Virus genome (UHGV): UHGV-0256895
Origin: a virus
Strand: one strand, 5' to 3'
Length of the DNA stretch: 18,404 nt
Part shown: piece by piece, positions 4,950 through 17,921 of the stretch
Layout: each line of letters begins with the position of its first letter
How positions within the stretch are numbered: the stretch's first letter is position 1
Notes under the pieces: model-generated
The model's input: the letters and a program-made list of their open reading frames with translations, nothing else
What the model was told of the DNA's origin: nothing
Database searches by the model: none
Program-made: the position numbers and the translations under genes

Positions 4950-5235
4950 GTTGTCCCCTTACGCGCTGACCTGGCTGGCGAAATTCACCAGGTACTGATC
5001 GGTGATGCGCTGGCGCAGCATCAGATTTTCAAGTGGCGGCACTGGCGTGTAGTCATAGTCGATGGTGAGTTTTCCGGCTTTCAGCGTGTCTTTGTCGTTC
5101 ACCGACTCATCCAGCCAGCAATCACCACCAATGAGATAGCCCTGACTGACCAGGCTGCGTATTTTGGCGCGGATACCTTCGATAATGTCGCGGGCCAGCG
5201 ACGGGTTAAGCGGTTTATCCACCGCCCACATGTGT

Positions 5236-5315
5236 GCTTCTGCCATTGTGTCCGTCAGCACCTGCGCCGTGCGGGTGTAGTTTTCGAAGGCAAAAAGCGG
5301 ATCATCGCTCAGACA
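5236..5315. repeat. Left copy of a perfect 80 bp inverted repeat inside FI (native-orientation copy)
   Basis: Plus 5236..5315 is the exact reverse complement of 5518..5597 (checked base by base, 80/80); encodes [27 protein letters not shown] in the minus-strand sheath frame. Confidence 0.9.
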
Positions 5316-5517
5316 TGCACTTGGTCTGCGTGCCAAAATTGATGAGCAGACCGGGTGGCACAAAAGCCTGTCCAACGTGGGCGTGAACGGTGTCACCGGA
5401 ATTTCTGCAGATGTGTTCTGGGATCTGCAGGACCCGGCAACCGATGCAGGTCTGCTGAACCAGAACGACGTCACCACGCTTGTGCGTAAAGACGGTTTCC
5501 GCTTCTGGGGTTCCCGC

Positions 5518-5597
5518 TGTCTGAGCGATGATCCGCTTTTTGCCTTCGAAAACTACACCCGCACGGCGCAGGTGCTGACGGACACAATGGCAGAAGC
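5518..5597. repeat. Right copy of the perfect 80 bp inverted repeat inside FI (inverted copy)
   Basis: Reverse complement of 5236..5315; encodes the same 26 residues on the plus strand, continuous with the inverted segment 5317..5517. Confidence 0.9.
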
Positions 5598-6248
5598 GTG
5601 TCCCAGCCAGTAAAGTCGGGCCAGATCAGCATTCCTTCGCGCTGGCTGAAGTTTTCACGGTAAGTGATCGCCTCCTGTACCGTCTTGCAGCCATACGCTG
5701 ACAGGTAAGCAAACCCACGCAGGCTTTGCGCCACGCTCAGCAACTCAGTCGCAACGGCTTTGTTATCGTGACCTGGCACGCCGAGAATGCGCGGTTTAAC
5801 GCCGAGCTGTGACTGGGCAGATAACAGAGCTTTCATGCCTGTTTTTTTACCTTCAGCAGTCACTGCGCCGATGATATTGGTCGTGGTTTCTTCTTCCGTT
5901 TCACCCTGCGGCACACGCACAACAACGGTCACGGGTTTTGCCTGGTCAGCGATGGCATCCAGCGAACGGGCCAGCGTGCCGGACTCACCCGCTTTACCGC
6001 TGGCAGTCAGCACATCAGTGATCAGCACAGGTTTGTTAAGAGGAAACATTTTTGCATCGGCATCATCGCCCGTGCAGACCATGCCCACGATGGCGGTGCT
6101 CACCGTGGTAATGGATCGGGTGCCTTCGTTGACTTCAACAACGCGCACCCCGTGGTGGTAATCCTGAGCCATAGTGGCGAACCTCCTGATTGGATTAGGC
6201 TTCGCCCTATGTTGAAGTGATTGTGCCTGACAAACAGCTAAGCGCAGT

Positions 6249-6314: not shown

Positions 6315-6887
6315 TCAGGGGGATTCATTACTCTTATTTGCCGGAAATTTTCTATAAATTGTGGAAACACCCACATCAAAAATCAGTGCAATACGCTGTC
6401 TTGATTCTCCGGCCTCGAGTAAACGCCCAATCTGTGCCCACTGTTCGGTGGTCAACTTAGGACGGCGTCCACCTACTCTGCCTTTGGCACGAGCTGCAGC
6501 CAGCCCTGCCCTGGTACGTTCAACTATCAGTTCGCGTTCCATTTCAGCCAGGGCACCCATGACATGAAAAAAGAAACGGCCCATTGGGGTACTGGTATCA
6601 ATACTGTCAGTCAGGCTTCGGAAATTCACACCACGCTGGCGCAACTCCTCTATCAGCGTAACAAGATGCCGCATACTGCGCCCCAACCTGTCCAGCTTCC
6701 AGACAACCAGCGTGTCTCCTGCCGATAGTGTCCTGAGCAGCTTTTTCAGCCCCGGTCTGTCGGACTTAGTGCCACTGATTTTATCCTCAAAAATCCGCTC
6801 ACATCCCGCGCAGTTCAGTGCATTACGTTGCAAATCGGTGTTCTGGTCATTTGTTGACACGCGTACATAGCCAATAAGCATGATCAT
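6315..6887 (-). CDS. Serine DNA invertase of the Gin/Pin/Cin/Hin family
   Basis: 190 aa ORF starting M(IM)LIGYVRVSTNDQNTDLQRNAL..., the characteristic N-terminal catalytic motif of the invertase subfamily of serine recombinases, with a C-terminal HTH-like region; true start may be the third Met (6881). Located beside an invertible tail-fibre segment. Confidence 0.85.
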   Translation of the reverse strand: MIMLIGYVRVSTNDQNTDLQRNALNCAGCERIFEDKISGTKSDRPGLKKLLRTLSAGDTLVVWKLDRLGRSMRHLVTLIEELRQRGVNFRSLTDSIDTSTPMGRFFFHVMGALAEMERELIVERTRAGLAAARAKGRVGGRRPKLTTEQWAQIGRLLEAGESRQRIALIFDVGVSTIYRKFPANKSNESP

Positions 6888-6936
6888 CCCCCTGAATAAA
6901 AACCGGAGATGATGCCAGTTAGCCGTTATCTCTGCA

Positions 6937-6962
6937 TTTTCATAAACGTTGGTTTGGGAGAG
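6937..6962. other. Invertase crossover site 1 (gix/hix-like, 26 bp)
   Basis: TTTTCATAAACG TT GGTTTGGGAGAG: two AAAC/GGTTT half-sites around a central dinucleotide as in hixL/gix; sits between the invertase start and the silent tail-fibre segment; matches site 2 at 19 of 26 positions in inverted orientation. Confidence 0.6.
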
Positions 6963-7298
6963 GGAGCAAAATTAGGCGCAGCGGTGTGTGTGGCCGGCTC
7001 TACAGGCTATATGACTATCCCGGCAATGGTCGCCGGGAAAGAACGGGTGATCATATTGCAGTGGTTTGGTGCTGCTACAACTGATTATGTGACACCAGTA
7101 ACTGCGAATTTCCCTATTGCATTCCCAAATGAGTGCATGATTCCGTTATTTAGTGATGTATCAACTGGGGCAGTTGATTTGAGTTCTACAGCCGCATATA
7201 GCTTAGCGGTGGGCCGATCATACTATACGACGGTAACAAGAACTCAGATTACATGTGCTGGCTACGGTGGCTTTAGAGTTTTCGCGATTGGATGGTGA
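6951..7298 (+). CDS. Silent alternative tail-fibre C-terminal segment (Sv'), no start of its own; would fuse to the constant part of H after inversion
   Basis: Plus frame from the crossover core gives [69 protein letters not shown]...GFRVFAIGW, sharing ILQW, FPIAFP and GGF..FA.G motifs with the expressed H C-terminus. The track ORF 6909..7298 covers it. Confidence 0.6.
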
Positions 7299-7303
7299 TT
7301 AAT

Positions 7304-7723
7304 ATGTTTTATTCTGCAAAAGAAAATGCGTTCTACGCTGATGAGCTAAAAAGTATTTATGAAAATGCAGGTAGCTGGCCTGACGATGCCGTTGAAGTAG
7401 ACTATTCCGTATTCGTTGAGTTTGCCGGAGAATCACCTAACGGAAAATTACGCGCTCCTAATTCTGATGGTTTACCTGAATGGATAGATATTCCCGAACC
7501 AACTGAAGAGGAAATTATTGCGTTGGCAGAAGCCGAAAAATCGCGACTGCGTGCTTCAGCTGACTCTGAAATAGAATGGCGGCAGGACGCCGTTGATGCG
7601 GGGATCGCGACGGAAGAAGAAACTGTTTCATTAGCCGAATGGAAAAAATACCGGGTGCTGCTGATGCGAGTTGATACAGCAGACCCGGACTGGCCTACTC
7701 CTCCGGCGACTCAGGCCAGTTGA
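7304..7723 (+). CDS. Alternative tail fibre assembly protein (Tfa, U'-like), silent orientation
   Basis: [28 protein letters not shown]... parallels the N-terminus of the expressed Tfa ([30 protein letters not shown]...); lies directly after the silent fibre segment. Track ORF starts 4 codons earlier at 7292. Confidence 0.7.
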
Positions 7724-8126
7724 TATCTGGTGCGCTGGATATGTCCACAGATTCCAGCGCATCGAGATAATCCAGCCACTCGTTATACTGGGCCTTCTCG
7801 TCGTCTGTAAGTCGCCCCAGCGCAGCTTTACCCGGCCACTGCTTGCTGTTTATATACTCATTAGCCTGATCGATACGATACTGTTTTTCAGCTTCAGCTG
7901 CTGCGATTTCCTCCTCATGGCTTAAAGGTGGAATGTCTACCCATGCCGGCATTCCATCCTCAGTAGCTCCACGAGTTTTACCCTCTGGTGGCATCCCCGA
8001 ATATTCAGTGAATGTCTCATCTGAGACGGCTATGAGATCGTCAGGCCAGTTTCTACTCGCTTCATAAACATCTCTGAGCTCATCAGGGTAGAAAGCGTTA
8101 TTTAATGCTGAATAAAAATAAGCCAT
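7695..8126 (-). CDS. G: Tail fibre assembly protein (Tfa, gpG / Mu U-like), expressed orientation
   Basis: 143 aa ORF immediately downstream of the tail fibre gene; Tfa-like N-terminus; converges on the alternative Tfa with a 29 bp 3' overlap. Confidence 0.75.
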
Positions 8127-8129
8127 TTA

Positions 8130-9545
8130 TTAATACCCCACAGCAAAATAGTTAAACCCGCCAGCGCCGATGGATGATTCAGCGTTGGTTCCTGTCTGAT
8201 AAGCGCGTAGCTGGAAATTAGTTCTCGTAAAATCCTGGGCGGTTAACGCAAAACCTTGACCTGTACCGCCAACACTCTGGTCTGTTGCAACAACACATAG
8301 CGCCCTGGTTGGAAACGCAATCGGGAATGATACTGTTTCTGGGGATGTTTTCGTTTTGGCTATTGCCCATTGAAGAATTAACCCGCCTGGCAGGTATTGA
8401 TACCCCGAATCGGCTCGCTGATTACCAAATGAAGACATGTCCGGAATCTGTCCGGAACCAGTGCCAACATTTTTTTTTGCCGCATCTCCTAAACCAAGGT
8501 ATGCGAGAAGACCAGCGACATCCTTTCCACTCAAATTAGTCAGCGTATTGTCCAGCGGTTGTTTACCTGCCAGCGCATTAAGCATTGTCGTGGCAAAGTT
8601 CGGATCATTCCCCAACGCCGACGCCAGTTCGTTCAGTGTATCCAGTGCCGCAGGTGCAGAACCTACCATTGCTGCAATCGCCGATTTCACAAAAGCCGTG
8701 GTGGCAATCTGTGTATTGTTGACCGACTGTGCAGCAGTGGGGGCTGTTGGCGTTCCGGTGAGTGCCGGACTCGACAACGGCGCTTTCAGTGCCAGCGCAT
8801 TGTTAATGGTGGTACTGAAATTCGGATCATTGTTAATGGCTGCGGCTATTTCTTTCAGCGTGTCCAGCGTGGCTGGCGCACCATTAATAAGAGCCGTCAG
8901 TGCCGCCTGAACAAACGCGGTGGTCGCAACCTGCGTGGTGTTATTCCCTGCCGCTGGAGTTGGCGCTTTTGGTGTCCCGGTAAACGTCGGACTTTCTTTG
9001 GGTGCATACTGTGAATGCGGGTCCGGTGCGGCAAGATGTTTTGCCATCTGATCATCCACGTACACCTTCAGCTCCAGTACCTTGTCATCCACATACTTGC
9101 GGGTTGCCAGCACTACGGCAGGGTCGATTTTCAGGGTGATATTGTCCGTGCTGCTGGTAATCAGCACCATGCGCACGGTCTGGGTACGCCCGCTGCCTTC
9201 AGCCAGTTGCGGCTTATAGCTTTCCGGGCAGTTGCCCACGGCAATCAATGCCCCGGACTCATCAAACAGGCCCACTTCACGTATCCACCAACCGCCCTCG
9301 TTTTCAGGGATCACCTGTTCAGCAATAATCTGGCTGCTGTTCTGCGGGTCGATATAGAGCATATTCAGCGCAGCCCGGCGTTTCTCATTTACCAATGCTG
9401 TCTGCTTGGCGTCCGGCGTTGGCAATGTTCCGCCGCCATCGCCCACCGCCATATGGGTAATTTTTAGCGGCACACCGAGCGCGGCGGCGCTGGCAAGTTT
9501 CGCCGCGCCAATATCCGTCAGCAGGGTATAAAATTTTGTGCTCAT
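8130..9545 (-). CDS. H: Tail fibre protein gpH (constant N-terminal part plus currently expressed variable C-terminal segment)
   Basis: 471 aa ORF; N-terminus MSTKFYTLLTDIGAAKLASAAALGVPLKITHMAVGDGGG... is typical of P2-type fibres; two tandem repeats of about 72 aa; crossover site embedded about 116 codons from the stop. Confidence 0.85.
   Translation of the reverse strand: MSTKFYTLLTDIGAAKLASAAALGVPLKITHMAVGDGGGTLPTPDAKQTALVNEKRRAALNMLYIDPQNSSQIIAEQVIPENEGGWWIREVGLFDESGALIAVGNCPESYKPQLAEGSGRTQTVRMVLITSSTDNITLKIDPAVVLATRKYVDDKVLELKVYVDDQMAKHLAAPDPHSQYAPKESPTFTGTPKAPTPAAGNNTTQVATTAFVQAALTALINGAPATLDTLKEIAAAINNDPNFSTTINNALALKAPLSSPALTGTPTAPTAAQSVNNTQIATTAFVKSAIAAMVGSAPAALDTLNELASALGNDPNFATTMLNALAGKQPLDNTLTNLSGKDVAGLLAYLGLGDAAKKNVGTGSGQIPDMSSFGNQRADSGYQYLPGGLILQWAIAKTKTSPETVSFPIAFPTRALCVVATDQSVGGTGQGFALTAQDFTRTNFQLRAYQTGTNAESSIGAGGFNYFAVGY
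8484..8509. other. Invertase crossover site 2 (gix/hix-like), inside the tail fibre gene at the constant/variable boundary
   Basis: ATCTCCTAAACC AA GGTATGCGAGAA on the plus strand; inverted relative to site 1; falls on the GLG codons of H (..LAYLGLGDAAKK..), the point where the silent segment (..[12 protein letters not shown]..) would join in frame. Confidence 0.6.
8556..8990 (-). repeat. Tandem duplication of about 72 codons inside the tail fibre gene
   Basis: Protein segments ..NTTQVATTAFVQAALTALINGAPATLDTLKEIAAAINNDPNFSTTINNALALKAP and ..NNTQIATTAFVKSAIAAMVGSAPAALDTLNELASALGNDPNFATTMLNALAGKQP are clearly homologous. Confidence 0.7.
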
Positions 9546-10147
9546 GGATTCACTCTCATTGTGTCAATAACATGGACCGCCCCGCCTTCATGCGCGGTGC
9601 CGCCGGAAATAATTGTTTCGTTGATATACGGATAGATCGTGATTTCTTCGCCAAGATAGCTGGCGGCCCCCACCCAATGCGGACCGCTGGTCTGCAGATT
9701 GATGGACATGCCGATCATGTGACGGCTACATGGTTTGGCATCGCTTATCAGCCGCTCAAGTTCCAGATAGGTATCTTCAGTGATGCCCTGGTCCTGCACG
9801 CCGATATCCAGGCGAAACGTGCCCGGTGTTTCTCCGGTCTGCCACCACTCAATAATGCGGATCAGGAATCCGAACGGTTCCACCACCCGCCGCACGGCAC
9901 TGGTAGTTCCTTTATGCTGATGAATATAAAAAGCATCCTTCACTACCTGGCGTTTGACGCTTTCTGTCCAGCCCTCGTCCCAGCGATCCACAGAGAACGC
10001 CCAGGCGAGATAAGGCAGGAAGCTGACCGGACAGGTAGCCGGATTCCACAAGTCACGCAGCGGCACCTGCAGATCAGAAATCCCGCTACAGGTTTGCGCC
10101 AGTCGGCGCTCCAGTGAAGTTGAACCCGGTGGCAGCAGACTATTCAT
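9542..10147 (-). CDS. I: Baseplate assembly protein gpI
   Basis: 201 aa ORF between J and H in the conserved V-W-J-I-H order. Confidence 0.75.
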   Translation of the reverse strand: MNSLLPPGSTSLERRLAQTCSGISDLQVPLRDLWNPATCPVSFLPYLAWAFSVDRWDEGWTESVKRQVVKDAFYIHQHKGTTSAVRRVVEPFGFLIRIIEWWQTGETPGTFRLDIGVQDQGITEDTYLELERLISDAKPCSRHMIGMSINLQTSGPHWVGAASYLGEEITIYPYINETIISGGTAHEGGAVHVIDTMRVNP

Positions 10148-11048
10148 CCGTTCCTCCGTTGGTTACGCTCCACTGCGTACATGATGCCGCCTGTGTTTTG
10201 TTCAGGACCACATCCGCCAGCGGAGAAGCCAGTTCCACACGTTGAACACCCTCAACATGCAGAGCAGCAAAGATGGCGCTACGGCGAATATCCCGACCAA
10301 GCCTCGTCTGGCTGGCAATGTACTTCTGCAGACTGGCTTTTGCCGCTGCCATTACCGGCTCTGCTTCCGGTCCCGGATAGAGAAAAATGGTGGCTTCCAC
10401 GCGATACGGGATGATTTCTGCGCTGCGAACCGTAAGACGGTCAGCCACCGGGCGGACGTTCTCACTGTTCAGAGCTTTTTCCACCACGTCCAGCAGGTCT
10501 TTTTCTGCAGTTCCATCGCCTTCGCGGCTAAGGACAGTCAGCACCACCTCTGCAGGTGCCGGGCTGGTTGCACTGGCATCCGCCACCCGACCGTCGGCGC
10601 TTCGGGCATGAAATTCATAAGCTGCAGTTGGCCCCGCAACTGAAAGCCCTTCAAAGGCTGCAGGCACACGCAGGCGTAACGCTTCATCGCTTTCCATCAC
10701 AGCTGCAACGGGCGGCACAGCGTCATTATCAGCAGGCGTCACCGTCAGGCGTTTCACGTTGTAGTTGGCGGCGAGCTGGTCCAGATCGCCCCCTATGGCA
10801 TAAGCCACCATCACCGCCTGCGCAGCTTCGTTAATGCGCTGGCGCAGAAGCAACTCACGGTAAGCATTCTCCTGCAACAATTTGGTGACGGGTTCAGATT
10901 CCAGTTCCAGCGTGCGGATCACTGCTTCCTGCTCATCTTTCGGATGAAGCGCCACAAATTCTGCCTTGCGTTCGGCAAGCAGCGTCTCAAAGTCCGGCAC
11001 ATCCACAATCTGCGGCGCAGGCAACTGCGAAAGGTCAATCACTGCCAT
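10140..11048 (-). CDS. J: Baseplate assembly protein gpJ
   Basis: Track ORF 10140..11087; the likely start is the internal Met giving MAVIDLSQLPAPQIVDVPDFETLLAERKAEF..., which resembles the remembered P2 gpJ N-terminus; C-terminal ..GRDIRRSAIFAALHVEGVQRVELASPLADVVLN.. also conserved. Confidence 0.8.
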   Translation of the reverse strand: MAVIDLSQLPAPQIVDVPDFETLLAERKAEFVALHPKDEQEAVIRTLELESEPVTKLLQENAYRELLLRQRINEAAQAVMVAYAIGGDLDQLAANYNVKRLTVTPADNDAVPPVAAVMESDEALRLRVPAAFEGLSVAGPTAAYEFHARSADGRVADASATSPAPAEVVLTVLSREGDGTAEKDLLDVVEKALNSENVRPVADRLTVRSAEIIPYRVEATIFLYPGPEAEPVMAAAKASLQKYIASQTRLGRDIRRSAIFAALHVEGVQRVELASPLADVVLNKTQAASCTQWSVTNGGTDE

Positions 11049-11394
11049 TCTCTGCTCCTGTTGATACGGAAAGGGAAACAGGCACACCGTTATTACGCCG
11101 CCCGGTCAGCTCCACCACCATTGAACCGTCAAAATTGCTGTTAATGGTGATGGAATCCAGCGTCAGCCGTGGCTCCCAGCGACTCAGCGCCACATACACT
11201 GCCGACATGACCTGCAGGCGTAATGCCGGATTTTGTGGCTGGTCTATCAGTGCCGACAGCAGGGAACCATATTCCCGACGGGCAATGCGGCTACCCTGCG
11301 GCGTCAGCAAAATGTCCCGCACCGACTGGCGCAGATGATCAATATCAGTAATGGCTTTACCGCTGGTATTGTTCATCCCGCTATAAAGCGTCAT
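11035..11394 (-). CDS. W: Baseplate wedge protein gpW (gp25-like)
   Basis: 119 aa ORF MTLYSGMNNTSGKAITDIDHLRQSVRDILLTPQGSRIARREYGSLLSALIDQP... with a W/gp25-like pattern; overlaps V stop and J start. Confidence 0.8.
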   Translation of the reverse strand: MTLYSGMNNTSGKAITDIDHLRQSVRDILLTPQGSRIARREYGSLLSALIDQPQNPALRLQVMSAVYVALSRWEPRLTLDSITINSNFDGSMVVELTGRRNNGVPVSLSVSTGAENGSD

Positions 11395-12015: not shown

Positions 12016-12033
12016 TGTGTGGTAAATGACACA
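12016..12033 (-). promoter_or_regulatory. Candidate late-promoter dyad (TGT-N12-ACA) upstream of V
   Basis: TGTGTGGTAAATGACACA, centred about 55 bp upstream of the V start codon, which leaves almost no leader if the P2 geometry holds; overlaps the putative promoter and 5' end of the opposite-strand cargo ORF. Motif alone is weak evidence. Confidence 0.3.
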
Positions 12034-12064
12034 AATACAATTCCAATCAAAGAAAGGTAAAAGA

Positions 12065-12595
12065 ATGAGCCATCCAATTGATTATTACGCTATAGAAGAA
12101 CACGCAAGAATAATTGAGCAATTATGCTGTTCATCTGAATTTTATTTACAGCGTATATATTCCACACAGAAAGTATATGATGGTTCTATAGTAACTGAAT
12201 TTGAAATGGAGGAGTTATCGTACAACGGATGGTTGGAATATACCATTAGCAACAATCTTATTAGCCTTTGTACAAAACTACGAATTCTCCAAGACACTAG
12301 TGAACATGAGTGGAACCCAGATTACTCACCTGAGAAAGAAGCATTTGAAGAACATGAAAATATACTTTTTGTTATAGATGGTCATGTTAAAGATTCTATA
12401 CGCGAATGCTGCAATAAAATTATTCACGCATTAAGTTTTGAGTTAACAAAAAAGACCGGCAAAAATGGAATAAAATATTGGGACGGTTCTATTATTGCTT
12501 CTGGGGTTCAAAACAAAAAAAACTGGAAAATTAAAATAGACCTTTTCCCTTTTTGCCAAAGCATAAAAAGTTATTTAAGTTTATTAAGAGCGTAA
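12065..12595 (+). CDS. Hypothetical protein, AT-rich cargo (moron) ORF in the S-V junction; function unknown
   Basis: Track ORF 12026..12595; the RBS-supported start is ATG 12065 (GAAAGG 7 nt upstream), giving a 176 aa soluble, acidic protein (MSHPIDYYAIEEHARIIEQLCCSSEFYLQRIYSTQKVYDG...). Strongly AT-rich and on the opposite strand to all flanking tail genes; no similarity I recognise. Confidence 0.6.
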   Translation: MSHPIDYYAIEEHARIIEQLCCSSEFYLQRIYSTQKVYDGSIVTEFEMEELSYNGWLEYTISNNLISLCTKLRILQDTSEHEWNPDYSPEKEAFEEHENILFVIDGHVKDSIRECCNKIIHALSFELTKKTGKNGIKYWDGSIIASGVQNKKNWKIKIDLFPFCQSIKSYLSLLRA

Positions 12596-15475: not shown

Positions 15476-16068
15476 TCAGCGGCTATCATTGCGCAGTCTG
15501 CGCTCCAGCTGCTGTTTGTCTTTTTTCACGCCACAGCGGGGATCGAGCTGTAACGCATGGTTGAGATGATTAAGGGCGGAAGCCGGATTACTTTCACTCA
15601 GGACAGCGCCAATCGCTTTATGCAGACGCGCCCGTGACTGGTCCGGCATATCCAGACCGTCTGTCAGCTCCAGCGTCTGCAGCAGCAGATCGACATCAAA
15701 GCCGGTAGTGGCAAGCATTGCGCTCTGCGCTGCGTCTGCCATTTCCTCTGCCAGCACGGTCTGCACGTTGCGGTTACCCAGCGGCATCACCCAGCCATGA
15801 CGCAGGGCATGACGCCCGATCTCCAGCGCTCCGACATAATCTCCGGCATCAATGCGCCACAGCATCACGTACATCAGCACGTCATCCTGTTGAGCGCCTC
15901 CGGCAGCCAGGACACCCTCCGCCCAGGCGGCGTATTTCGGCAGCAGCTCCACCTTGATTTCCGCTTTTTTGACCGTGGACTGAACGCCCTTGAGACGGCG
16001 GCGGTCTTCTGCCAGTTGCAGCAGCATCAGGTCATAGCCCGACGCGTGGCGAACGCTGCGCGCTGCTG
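15476..16068 (-). pseudogene. M: Terminase small (endonuclease) subunit gpM body; first 18 codons are separated from it by the N/M inversion
   Basis: Minus frame ..SAARSVRHASGYDLMLLQLAEDRRRLKGVQSTVKKAEIKVELLPKY.. is gpM-like from 16068 down to the stop at 15476 but has an in-frame stop just upstream of 16069; the native start (MSLSPARQHRLRVQAECQ) lies on the plus strand at 16276..16329. The track ORF starts at the internal Met 16027. Confidence 0.7.
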
Positions 16069-16272
16069 ATCACCCGTCTGGATAACCTGTCCATTTACTG
16101 GCAGGAAGACACCCGCCGCCGTTCGGTTATCGACAACCCGAAACGTGACCGGATTGAAAATTTTGAATCCGTTAACGAAGCCTATGTGGTTGAGGACTAC
16201 CGCTGCGCCGCACTGGTGGAAAACATCCAGATTGGCGACTTCAGCGCCGCCGCAGCAGAAACCGGAGCGTAA
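16069..16272 (+). other. N: Displaced C-terminal 67 codons of capsid gene N, on the opposite strand
   Basis: Plus frame ITRLDNLSIYWQEDTRRRSVIDNPKRDRIENFESVNEAYVVEDYRCAALVENIQIGDFSAAAAETGA* matches the remembered C-terminus of P2 gpN; the frame is open without a start codon and is absent from the track. Confidence 0.7.
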
Positions 16273-17047
16273 ACCATGAGCCTGAGTCCCGCACGGCAGC
16301 ATCGCCTGCGCGTTCAGGCTGAATGTCAGACAGCAGCTCACGACCGCAAATCACCACCAGATCGTCATCGTCCTGGTAGACCACGTCGATAAGCTCATTG
16401 ACCGCATCCATCACCACGGCGTCCAGGTTGGCATATTCGCCACCTTTCCCGACTTTCACCGCACCCGGTGTGGTTTCACCGCCCGTGGTGGTGCTGCCCA
16501 TGACGTGATCCGGTGCATCCTCACGGATTTTCTGCAGCCAGCCTTTGTTCACATCCTGCAGCAGCGGGTTTTCGCTACGGTTGGAGGTTTTCGCACGCTT
16601 CACGCCGTTAAAGCCGATCATGATGCGGTCCAGTGCCTGGCGTTTCACGATGGCGTCACGGATACGCACCTGGAAATCCTGAAACTTCGCCCACAGGTCC
16701 AGCTTCGCGTAGGTCAGCACCGTGTCAAAGTTGGTCTGTTCGCATTTGTATTCCACATCGATCATCAGCGTCGGATCGACAGGTTCACGCTCTTTCGCGG
16801 TGGTGTCAGTGGTTCCGGCAATGGTGCTGCCAACACCCAATCCAAGCAGCTGACCGGACTGCTCAGTCACTGGCGTGACGTTAATCAGCGTCAGGAAAGC
16901 GGCGGACTGCTGGATCTGGTCTTCCAGCGTCTGCTGCACAGACGGCTCTACGGTGAACTTGCTGGACAGTTCCTCAACTGCCACACCGTTCAGACGCGCC
17001 AGTTGCTGCAGGTAAGCGTTAAAAGCAAAACGGGTATTCTTCTTCAT
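16241..17047 (-). pseudogene. N: Major capsid protein gene N, N-terminal 239 codons intact; C-terminus displaced by the inversion
   Basis: Track ORF 268 aa; MKKNTRFAFNAYLQQLARLNGVAVEELSSKFTVEPSV...LVVICGRELL is gpN-like to about 16331; the last 29 codons (SDIQPERAGDAAVRDSGSWFTLRFLLRRR) are antisense of the displaced M start and N end. Confidence 0.8.
16276..16329 (+). other. M: Displaced first 18 codons of terminase small subunit gene M, on the opposite strand
   Basis: ATG 3 nt after the displaced N stop, MSLSPARQHRLRVQAECQ, resembling the gpM N-terminus; joins in frame to the minus-strand M body through the inverted repeat when the segment is re-inverted. Confidence 0.6.
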
Positions 17048-17063: not shown

Positions 17064-17807
17064 TCAGCAATTGGTCAGAGTGTCAGCGGGGGCGTTGCCG
17101 CCTGTTGCACGCTGGCGGTAGTCCTGGCGGCTGTCTTCATGACTCAGCTTATCCACCAGTTCGTTAAAGGCGGTTTGCTGCTCCTGCAGAGCAGTCTCCA
17201 GCTCAGACAGGCGTTCTTCCTGCTCAGACAGGGATTTTTCGGTGCGCGTGCTCAGGTTCTGCTGCTCAGTGGCGACCAGTTCCACGGCCTTATGCACATC
17301 AGAGAACCGGACGTCATCGGACTGCTCTTTTTTGGTAAACAGCGCCGTGACGCGGGCAAACAGGGACGGCTTGTCCTCCTGGATTTCTTCCAGTTCGATC
17401 ACCGTTTCCTCTGCAGCGGTAAAAAGATTGGCAGGATTCTGCTTGCGGTTTGCCAGCGGGTTATGGGCTGCACTGGCGCTGAATGTCAGCATTTCCGTAC
17501 CCAGACTGGCGGGATCATCAGTGGCAGCCAGGCCGACCAGGTAGGCTTTGCCCGTATCAGCAAACTTCGGGCTGACTTCCATAGAGGTGAATAATTTCTG
17601 GCCTTTTTTCACCAGTTCCACCAGGGACTCCGTTGGCTCAACGTCGGCATACAGTGCCATCTTGCCTGCCAGCGGACCTTCCGCGATTTCTTCAGCAAAC
17701 CCTGCGGTTTGTGTGGTTGTCGGTACAAATACCGCGCATTGTTTCACTGCCCCCATCACCGCAACCATAAGGCTCCAGTAAGTTTTTTCTAACGGAGCAC
17801 GGCTCAT
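17064..17807 (-). CDS. O: Capsid scaffold protein gpO (body); native 5' end uncertain
   Basis: Track ORF 17064..18029; from about residue 108 (..GFAEEIAEGPLAGKMALYADVEPTESLVELVKKGQKLFTSMEVSPKFADTGKAYLVGLAATDDPASLGTE...TGGNAPADTLTNC) it is clearly gpO-like. Upstream of about 17710 similarity is lost; the first 74 codons of the track ORF are antisense of terminase P. Confidence 0.7.
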   Translation of the reverse strand: MSRAPLEKTYWSLMVAVMGAVKQCAVFVPTTTQTAGFAEEIAEGPLAGKMALYADVEPTESLVELVKKGQKLFTSMEVSPKFADTGKAYLVGLAATDDPASLGTEMLTFSASAAHNPLANRKQNPANLFTAAEETVIELEEIQEDKPSLFARVTALFTKKEQSDDVRFSDVHKAVELVATEQQNLSTRTEKSLSEQEERLSELETALQEQQTAFNELVDKLSHEDSRQDYRQRATGGNAPADTLTNC

Positions 17808-17853
17808 GACAGTGAAAGCAAAGCGTTTTCGCATCGGGGTGGAAGGTGCCACT
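17806..17853 (+). other. O: gpO N-terminal motif encoded on the opposite strand (possible third inverted fragment)
   Basis: Plus ATG 17806: MTVKAKRFRIGVEGAT matches the gpO N-terminus as I remember it (MAKKVSKFFRIGVEGDT); after codon 16 similarity ends. The 52-codon frame (to 17964) is too short for the track. Confidence 0.45.
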
Positions 17854-17921
17854 AGAAAGTTGCAACCGTTCACAGCTGGAAAAAACGCGACAAGTGGGGT
17901 GACTATGGGCCGCTGGATCAG

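Follow-up and report, generated by a model that had tools for sequence, protein, structure and literature searches.

A tandem pair of 74-residue modules in the constant part of a P2 gpH-type phage tail fibre

We analysed a stretch of 18,404 nucleotides from the virus genome UHGV-0256895 (the window) and found that the gpH-type tail-fibre gene of this P2-like prophage carries two tandem copies, A and B, of a 74-residue module upstream of a putatively invertible tip. The two-copy repeat is real, yet phage fibres are very commonly built in this way and it is ordinary. Phages P1, P2, Mu and lambda and the T-even phages reportedly have repeated motifs in their tail fibres; modular shaft motifs that are exchanged horizontally are said to lie in the conserved 5' portion of the genes, whose host-specific 3' parts are said to be bounded by invertase crossover sites. 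With a probability of about 0.85, our observations are best explained as a whole by an ancient A–B shaft pair whose copy number would set the reach of the tip and would occasionally change by unequal crossing-over.

The tail-fibre gene and its 74-residue repeat

The fibre gene, its N-terminal domain and the two modules are located as follows:

8130–9545, minus strand: gpH-type tail-fibre gene, 471 aa (from the ORF list and its translation), oriented with the variable tip 8130–8483 currently fused
9096–9545, minus strand: N-terminal baseplate-attachment domain, aa 1–150 (PF12571, Phage_tail_fib)
8772–8993, minus strand: shaft module copy A, aa 185–258, SPTFTGTPKAPT...ATTAFV...APATLDTLKEIAAAINNDPNF...LKAPLS (self-alignment; HMM 138.7 bits, positions 1–74)
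8550–8771, minus strand: shaft module copy B, aa 259–332, SPALTGTPTAPT...ATTAFV...APAALDTLNELASALGNDPNF...GKQPLD (self-alignment)

A preliminary description, made from the sequence alone, had named this fibre H, and both its domains and its neighbours agree with that name. In Pfam, the product matches PF12571 (phage tail-collar fibre) with E 2.7e-65 and 219 bits against a cutoff of 23, over profile positions 1–150 of 150, and PF21882 matches aa 385–471. On the 5' side lie homologues of gpJ (PF04865 Baseplate_J, 10140–11087) and gpI (PF09684 Tail_P2_I, 9542–10147), and on the 3' side lies a PF02413 fibre-assembly gene (gpG/Tfa, 7695–8126), all on the minus strand. The gene thus has both marks of a P2 gpH-type fibre, that is, the PF12571 N-terminus and the position after J and I and before a gpG/Tfa gene. 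This order of J, I, H and assembly gene is common to the window, P2 and phage Cartapus. Over its full length, the product is 97% identical to an Escherichia coli 'phage tail protein' (P0002). Two antisense ORFs across the repeat on the plus strand (8437–8910 and 8559–9014) have products rich in Arg and Cys, as is usual for the strand opposite an Ala-rich gene, and were not regarded as genes. No RNA family from Rfam was found anywhere in the window. Other genes of the window contain inverted pieces, at 5316–5597, 16060–16323 and 17701–17854, which may be assembly chimeras.

When the 471-aa product is compared to itself, the best off-diagonal alignment pairs aa 185–257 with aa 259–331, without gaps and at an offset of 74 residues (222 nt). 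In the split-and-align scan, 45 of 73 residues are identical (62%, with 77% positives). The BLOSUM62 score of 233 compares to 36 ± 6.8 in 2000 shuffles (maximum 71; z = 28.9), and BLASTP with compositional adjustment yields E = 9e-29. The tandem duplication that had been proposed for the fibre is thus significant in self-comparison. The bounds proposed for it, 8556–8990, lie within 6 nt of the 8550–8993 found here, whereas its unit, put at about 72 codons, has 74. A relaxed HMM scan of H detected exactly two copies and no additional degenerate ones.

At the DNA level, the copies are identical in register at 137 of 222 positions (61.7%), with 65, 82 and 38% identity at the first, second and third codon positions, and only 21 of the 45 conserved residues have an identical codon. 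Identical runs reach 12 nt at most. The DNA similarity has a z of 10 against codon shuffles and a blastn E of 1e-4. Tandem Repeats Finder and an exact-seed repeat finder returned no match for the repeat, which is detectable only by blastn at word size 7 or in protein comparison. This is in line with the earlier statement that the copies are homologous as proteins and diverged as DNA. Both copies contain the motif SPxxTGxPxAPT...NxTQ[IV]ATTAFV in the first half and APxxLDTLxE[IL]AxA[IL]xNDPNF...ALxxKxPL in the second half, and 45 alignment columns are invariant between them. The two motifs are also present in P2 gpH, in RCS47 gpS and in a further protein (P0122).

Constant part and putatively invertible tip

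Downstream of the repeat, the fibre gene runs into a putative invertible segment with the following features:

8484–8509, minus strand: right crossover site, coding strand TTCTCGCATACC TT GGTTTAGGAGAT, codons L346–D354, end of the constant part (read directly and by pattern match)
6937–6962, plus strand: left crossover site, TTTTCATAAACG TT GGTTTGGGAGAG, in the opposite orientation to the right site (read directly and by pattern match)
6909–7298, plus strand: alternative fibre tip (PF21882, E 8e-10), within the contents of the invertible segment, 6909–8126
7292–7723, plus strand: assembly protein for the alternative tip (PF02413)
7695–8126, minus strand: assembly protein for the current tip (PF02413)
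6315–6887, minus strand: serine DNA invertase of the Gin/Cin/Hin type (PF00239 Resolvase, E 2.3e-53; PF02796 HTH_7, E 1.5e-15)

The two sites are identical at 19 of 26 positions in inverted orientation and have the same central TT. PF02413 matches the two assembly proteins with E 1e-33 and 1.9e-38. An invertase, inverted sites of about 26 bp, opposed sets of tip and assembly genes and an upstream site within the fibre gene together form the layout of a Gin/Cin/Hin-type switch, comparable to the Mu G segment and the P1 C segment. The 26-bp right site follows the end of the repeat at a distance of 14 residues. Homology to Cartapus and to Klebsiella phages ends at 8475–8488, with near-identity to Cartapus stopping at 8475, and Cartapus homology restarts at 6971. 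The repeat is thus part of the constant part of the fibre, where it had been placed before.

Escherichia phage Cartapus (NC_070909; Peduoviridae, Elveevirus) resembles the window closely up to this point. The constant part of its gp19 gene, including both modules, has 99.8% DNA identity to window positions 8475–9545. The protein is identical over aa 1–353, and the first difference, D354E, falls within the crossover site. The gene order also agrees: J, I, H, assembly protein, inverted assembly protein with alternative tip, Gin-like invertase (annotated as a Mu Gin homologue in Cartapus) and sheath. The window segment 6972–8474 has no megablast-level match in Cartapus, and the tips and assembly proteins are different cassettes. 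Among the truncated IMG/VR contigs of close relatives, about 13 of 24 end at H residues 351–367, which is the crossover site; such ends are expected if assemblies break where reads disagree, and they would be an indirect sign that the segment may occur in both orientations.

Spread and copy number of the module

The module family has no curated model and was here defined by a profile built from a module alignment (A1). At E <= 1e-3, 40,092 representatives of clusters made at 50% identity match this profile, and 13,648 still do so at E <= 1e-10. Among the best 150 of the 40,092 representatives, which as top scorers are biased towards many copies, one protein has 11 full-length copies, the maximum, and another has nine in strict 74-residue tandem; the commonest spacing is exactly 74 residues (48 pairs). 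The profile hits 30 PHROG families, and nearly all of those that have a category belong to 'tail'. Lambda Stf and minor tail proteins of mycobacteriophages contain the module as well. Searches with the two-module segment and with the nine-copy homologue yielded neither PF03406 (Phage_fiber_2, 'phage tail fibre repeat') nor any other Pfam repeat family at E <= 10, and NCBIfam has no model that matches the module. Exact 74-residue boundaries are now available for a shaft unit that lacks a Pfam or NCBIfam model and matches more than 40,000 cluster representatives; the practical value of this is small, and the general understanding of tail fibres is unchanged.

Two better-known fibres were compared to the window. 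P2 gpH (NP_046775, 669 aa) shares the PF12571 N-terminus and the J, I, H, G neighbourhood. It has a single module at aa 256–328, which is identical to B at 59 of 74 residues (80%) and to A at 42 of 74 (57%). Unlike the fibre in the window, P2 gpH has a different tandem repeat of its own (TAKGFTQLSSATNSTSETLAATPKAVK, twice) and a long non-invertible tip, and P2 has no invertase. RCS47 gpS (P1-type, constant part Sc, Punavirus) carries the A–B pair at aa 257–330 and 331–404, in the same order and phase as in the window. Its first module is 81% identical to A and its second is 84% identical to B. Here, too, an invertible segment follows downstream of the pair, and it has U and U' assembly genes. 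The N-terminal 250 residues, in contrast, are unrelated to those of H, and the tip is far longer (975 aa in total). A cluster representative related to RCS47 gpS (P0141) has three module copies.

Comparing repeat numbers among relatives, as the preliminary description had suggested, we observed two copies in about 95% of them and only rarely one, three or four. Most of the relatives sampled share 80% identity or more in the N-terminal domain. They comprise the best 120 cluster representatives of roughly 8,000 PF12571-containing homologues, where 113 have two copies, five have three, one has four in tandem, and the remaining one (P0001) has four through repetition of a larger block. They further comprise 78 IMG/VR loci, where 75 have two copies, one has three, one has one, and one is cut off inside its second copy. 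The counts of one, two, three or four module copies among near-identical relatives support the earlier claim that the repeats change fibre length.

The variants also bear on the claim that the repeats are recombination substrates. The one-copy variant (L080) is a chimera of A1–59 and B60–74, joined within AATGAYCCGAA. In two three-copy variants, the middle copy is a B/A chimera whose junction differs between them: B1–28/A29–74, joined within the ATTAFV codons, in P0005 (= L076), and B1–46/A47–74, joined after LDTL, in P0004. Furthermore, P0007 and P0010 have the arrangement A-A-B, and P0003 has A-A-A-B (four copies). The junctions of variants were mapped in DNA to short shared patches. The copies have thus apparently recombined with each other. 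The one-, three- and four-copy variants look like the products expected of unequal crossing-over at short patches of identity, a mechanism that we infer from these products only. With no uninterrupted match longer than 12 nt between them, A and B are poorly suited to classical homologous recombination. Some of the variants, for instance A-A-B, could also stem from shaft blocks being replaced repeatedly by horizontal exchange between phages. Natural fibres with one to four copies that arose from unequal exchange could be useful for engineering fibre length and for grafting tips in P2-like phages or tailocins.

Age and proposed role of the A–B pair

In two-copy E. coli relatives, A orthologues are 97–98% identical to copy A of the window and B orthologues are 97–98% identical to copy B. 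Matching copies in the three- and four-copy variants, including an Enterobacter protein, are 83–98% identical to their counterparts in the window, and the B/A chimeric middle copies have intermediate identity; A compared to B across relatives reaches 56–66%. Of 170 modules from diverse proteins, 104 resemble A more than B does, and 131 resemble B more than A does. Since the same A–B pair occurs in P1-like gpS and most unrelated modules are nearer to A or B than A is to B, the duplication does not appear to be specific to this lineage. Judging from these comparisons, it is ancient and did not arise within the prophage's own lineage. The A–B order is kept in P2-like and P1-like fibres, which suggests that the pair moves as a block.

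Could the pair instead be the result of a recent duplication within this prophage lineage, followed by rapid divergence? A and B are adjacent, in frame and without a spacer, and relatives offer examples of young duplicates of copy A (100% identity between copies 1 and 2 in P0010, 97% between the copies of P0007). However, the third-position identity of 38%, the 81–84% identity of A and B to their P1-like counterparts and the 83–98% identity to enterobacterial ones make such an origin highly improbable, as do the clearly B-type single copy of P2 and the unrelated modules that are nearer to A or B than A is to B. Quite improbable, but less so, is that A and B were acquired separately from a module pool and juxtaposed by mosaic (horizontal) recombination. 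Tail-fibre genes are mosaic, the module is found behind unrelated N-terminal domains, and, compared with Cartapus, which is otherwise 99.9% identical, this prophage has had its invertible tip exchanged; yet exact head-to-tail phasing at 74 residues without a linker is the norm in the family, with up to nine modules in a row, as tandem duplication yields, and the order A–B is conserved between P2-like and P1-like fibres. Separate acquisition departs from the best explanation only over how the original pair formed.

The similarity might also be an artefact of low-complexity composition, with two Ala/Thr/Pro-rich stretches that are merely alike. Residues A, T, L, N and P are indeed abundant in the module (copies A and B, together 148 residues, have 33 Ala and 23 Thr), the low-complexity filter of tblastn masks its first 14 residues, and the DNA repeat finders remained empty. 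This reading has next to no chance of being correct given 73 ungapped residues at 62% identity, an E-value of 9e-29 that is adjusted for composition, a z of 28.9 against shuffles of the same residues, and the recurrence of the unit in thousands of other proteins, spaced at exactly 74 residues. Phage tail-fibre genes are, moreover, classical DGR targets, and one distant multi-copy homologue shows weak similarity, below threshold, to the second domain of Mtd. We dismissed the reading of A and B as a DGR template/variable repeat pair, or as other programmed hypervariation, on account of the mismatch spectrum and the conservation of each copy, and consider it almost certainly wrong: the 85 mismatches include all substitution types without adenine bias (A in copy A at 25 and in copy B at 21), and A and B both encode protein in frame, each of them conserved across relatives. 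In addition, the ORF list and the ten window proteins scanned with Pfam, a subset of the ORFs, contain phage structural genes and the invertase and no reverse transcriptase, and the Rfam search was empty.

According to the explanation that we prefer, an ancient A–B shaft pair, modules A and then B would form the shaft of a P2 gpH-type fibre between the attachment domain of aa 1–150 and a receptor-binding tip, which the Gin-type DNA invertase would exchange. The pair would stem from an ancient duplication and would since have been inherited and swapped between phages as a block. Each module most likely corresponds to one fixed-length segment of a homotrimeric shaft, so that copy number would set the reach of the tip from the baseplate; the shaft role and the length per copy are suggested by the place of the modules in the protein and by the annotations of homologues. 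Copy number may occasionally change when A and B are misaligned and undergo unequal crossing-over or replication slippage at patches of about 11–18 nt of near-identity, with the enzymology being conjectural. The saturated synonymous divergence between A and B would keep such changes rare and thus the two-copy state stable.

A more tentative idea, which we consider possible though not probable, is that module copy number acts as a selectable ruler that tunes the reach of the tip to the thickness of the host surface layer (O-antigen or capsule), and that synonymous divergence between A and B is maintained because it suppresses the deletion of copies. If this were true, variants with one, three or four copies, such as the A-A-A-B of an Enterobacter prophage, would reflect adaptation to hosts rather than neutral accidents.

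An AF2 single-sequence monomer model of aa 151–357 is poor (pLDDT 43.7) and places helices in the second half of the module at low confidence. At the sequence level, this second half matches the solved chain 9d93, 'tail collar fibers gp4', with E 2e-9. The match to 6v8i (E 0.47) serves as a lead only, and chain 9k09 belongs to cyanopodophage A4.

Two probable shaft modules in the tail fibre protein

A split-and-align self-scan of the tail fibre protein H revealed a single strong off-diagonal alignment, ungapped and offset by 74 residues (aa 185-257 against 259-331). The two copies, A and B, are identical at 45 of 73 residues (62%, with 77% positives). Their alignment score of 233, compared to 36 +/- 6.8 in 2000 shuffles (z = 28.9), and the composition-adjusted BLASTP result (E = 9e-29) rule out a composition artefact. 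With an HMM built from both copies, we find exactly two full-length units in the protein (aa 185-258 and 259-332) and no further copies, relaxed thresholds included. The preliminary description had located a duplication of about 72 codons at 8556-8990; these bounds are correct to within 6 nt at each end, whereas the length is 74 codons.

At the DNA level, A and B are 61.7% identical in register (65, 82 and 38% at first, second and third codon positions), and the same codon is kept at only 21 of the 45 conserved residues. The characterization of the copies as homologous in protein and diverged in DNA is thus accurate. Identity between them is uninterrupted for 12 nt at most; in the DNA, neither Tandem Repeats Finder nor a search from exact seeds picked up the repeat, and short-word blastn detected it (E 1e-4).

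Features of the fibre region
8130-9545, minus: gpH-type tail fibre ORF of 471 codons (H), from ORF list and translation
H aa 1-150: N-terminal 'tail-collar fibre' domain of the P2 gpH type (PF12571, E 2.7e-65)
8772-8993, minus: copy A (aa 185-258)
8550-8771, minus: copy B (aa 259-332)
8484-8509, minus: right 26-bp crossover site, TTCTCGCATACC-TT-GGTTTAGGAGAT (codons L346-D354)
H aa 385-471: gp53-like C-terminal tip domain (PF21882)
10140-11087: baseplate protein J homologue, upstream of the fibre gene
9542-10147: baseplate protein I homologue, directly before the fibre gene
7695-8126: lambda-gpK/Tfa-type assembly gene, after the fibre gene
6937-6962, plus: left 26-bp site, TTTTCATAAACG-TT-GGTTTGGGAGAG, inverted relative to the right site and bounding the segment
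6909-7298: alternative fibre tip in opposite orientation (PF21882)
6315-6887: serine invertase (PF00239 and PF02796)

The order J, I, H and assembly gene is the same in P2 and in the near-identical Escherichia phage Cartapus (NC_070909; Peduoviridae, Elveevirus), which together with the PF12571 match shows that the gene had been correctly named H. Among the surrounding tail genes, a 189-aa ORF lies on the opposite strand (12026-12595, plus); it is the counterpart of the Cartapus hypothetical protein gp14, has no match in the Pfam scan and is possibly a moron-type accessory gene.

Origin and distribution of the module

Modular repeated shaft motifs in the fibres of P1, P2, Mu and lambda have been under discussion since the early 1990s. 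A profile of both copies, run against the representatives of 50%-identity clusters (1.84 billion sequences), matched 40,092 proteins at E <= 1e-3, of which 13,648 were left at E <= 1e-10 and 1,607 at E <= 1e-30. Among the best 150 of the 40,092, there are up to 11 full-length units per protein, the commonest start-to-start spacing is exactly 74, and one protein of 1039 residues carries nine units in strict 74-residue tandem. The 74-residue unit is itself composite, as its first half of ~35 residues (SPxxTGxPxAPT...ATTAFV) is also found alone, in arrays with as many as 23 stretches in a protein. Thirty PHROG families are matched, nearly all of those with an assigned category being 'tail', and the unit also occurs in lambda Stf, in minor tail proteins of mycobacteriophages and Gordonia phages and in cyanophage fibres. 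No Pfam-A or NCBIfam model, PF03406 included, covers the 74-residue unit.

From their position in the protein and their occurrence in tandem in annotated tail fibres, the two units would form the fibre shaft between the baseplate-binding domain and the exchangeable tip, with each unit probably adding one segment of fixed length to a homotrimer. In a sequence search, the second half of the unit matches a solved 'tail collar fibers gp4' chain (9d93, E 2e-9), so that relatives of this half are present in solved fibre assemblies; weaker matches are the cyanopodophage A4 tail fibre (9k09) and the 80-alpha upper fibre (6v8i). In a low-confidence AF2 monomer, the second half of each unit contains helices, and the first half a Pro/Thr-rich stretch in extended conformation.

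In E. coli relatives with two copies, the A-type copies are 97-98% identical to A and the B-type copies 97-98% identical to B. Counterpart copies in variants with three and four copies, including an Enterobacter protein, are 83-98% identical to ours, and A against B is always at 56-66% among relatives. P2 gpH has one unit only (aa 256-328), which is identical to B at 59 of 74 residues and to A at 42 of 74. The P1-like phage RCS47 carries the same pair in gpS, in the same order and phase (aa 257-404; unit 1 81% to A, unit 2 84% to B), behind an N-terminus unrelated to that of our fibre. Of 170 ungapped, full-length units from the best-scoring 150 of the 40,092 representatives, 104 resemble A more closely than B does, and 131 resemble B more closely than A does. 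Together, these orthologies and distances place the split of A and B before P2-like and P1-like fibres exchanged shaft blocks.

A duplication that is recent and specific to this lineage is ruled out because third positions are saturated and because A and B are orthologous to units in the fibres of P1-like phages and P2, and the mismatch spectrum rules out a template/variable pair of a DGR; no reverse transcriptase was seen among the window ORFs listed or the ten Pfam-scanned proteins. For the original event, A and B might instead have been acquired separately by mosaic recombination; however, their exact phasing and conserved order make this less economical than one tandem duplication. Judged by these sequence comparisons, the duplication is ancient and widely shared, and this prophage has inherited its pair as a two-module block. 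The repeat is confirmed and its interpretation supported, but the feature is ordinary, and the identical constant part is already in the published Cartapus genome. The added value is modest: exact unit boundaries, a census of a family that is huge yet has no curated model, and a clean series of natural unequal-crossover products with one to four copies.

Copy number variation

We counted the modules in the best 120 protein-cluster representatives and in 78 close IMG/VR loci.

Copy number among relatives of H
Cluster representatives (120): one copy, 0; two, 113; three, 5; four in tandem, 1; other, 1 (P0001)
IMG/VR loci (78): one copy, 1; two, 75; three, 1; four, 0; cut off inside the second copy, 1
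Locus L080, one copy: A1-59/B60-74 chimera, junction within AATGAYCCGAA
P0005 (same as locus L076), three copies: A-[B1-28/A29-74]-B, junction within the ATTAFV codons
P0004, three copies: A-[B1-46/A47-74]-B, junction after LDTL
P0007 and P0010, three copies: A-A-B, the two A copies 97-100% identical
P0003 (Enterobacter), four copies: A-A-A-B

The DNA of L080 and L076 switches cleanly between A-specific and B-specific bases at the junctions. The variants match the prediction for unequal exchange, and these natural products with chimeric junctions support the earlier proposal that the repeats serve as recombination substrates and would change fibre length. The proposal needs a qualification in that uninterrupted identity is at most 12 nt, which is too short for RecA-dependent exchange to be efficient. 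The short shared identity is consistent with the rarity of the variants (~5%) and suggests that they may arise through short-homology recombination or replication slippage. In P0001 (768 aa, Salmonella Typhi, 'Gifsy-2 prophage tail fiber protein'), some 264 residues are present twice, a stretch comprising module A for the most part, all of module B and a PF07484-type tip. The outcome is 2+2 modules, four in all, due either to duplication of a large internal part or to an error of assembly.

The invertible segment and comparison to Cartapus

The repeat had been assigned to the constant part of the fibre, and this is borne out: it ends at residue 332, 14 residues ahead of the crossover site, and an invertase and inverted 26-bp sites are present. 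Between invertase and repeat lie two opposed assembly genes (PF02413) alongside the alternative tip. Both flanks of the invertible segment are 99.8-99.9% identical to Cartapus, and megablast finds no match in that genome for 6972-8474, where both tips and their assembly genes lie. The difference is a swap of the host-range cassette, bounded within ~10 nt of both crossover sites.

Among IMG/VR relatives (L001-L080), about 13 of the 24 contigs ending inside H stop at residues 351-367, at or just past the crossover site. Such ends would be expected if conflicting reads from the two segment orientations interrupted the assembly, and are indirect evidence of an active switch in those populations. 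The variable tip starts with a potentially slippage-prone run of nine A (8470-8478; coding strand GCA AAA AAA AAT), located 6 nt past the crossover site when read in the direction of coding.

Compared to Cartapus, three short pieces of the window are inverted (5316-5597, 16060-16323 and 17701-17854), with sequence lost or duplicated next to them. At 5316-5597, a 282-nt inverted piece is accompanied by an 80-nt inverted duplication and the loss of 38 nt, all pieces being otherwise 100% identical to Cartapus. This inversion leaves the fibre gene untouched and splits the tail-sheath gene (4959-6172, minus) into ORFs 5471-6172 and 4959-5477, an arrangement absent from all 997 complete E. coli genomes in which this sheath gene occurs. 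The rest of the sequence is 99.9% identical to a viable phage, and the arrangement has the look of an assembly chimera or of a private rearrangement that inactivates the gene. The same pattern is seen at 16060-16323 and 17701-17854, where 16 + 122 nt and 148 + 140 nt are lost from the flanks; these two rearrangements hit the major head gene at its end and the intergenic region of terminase and scaffold.
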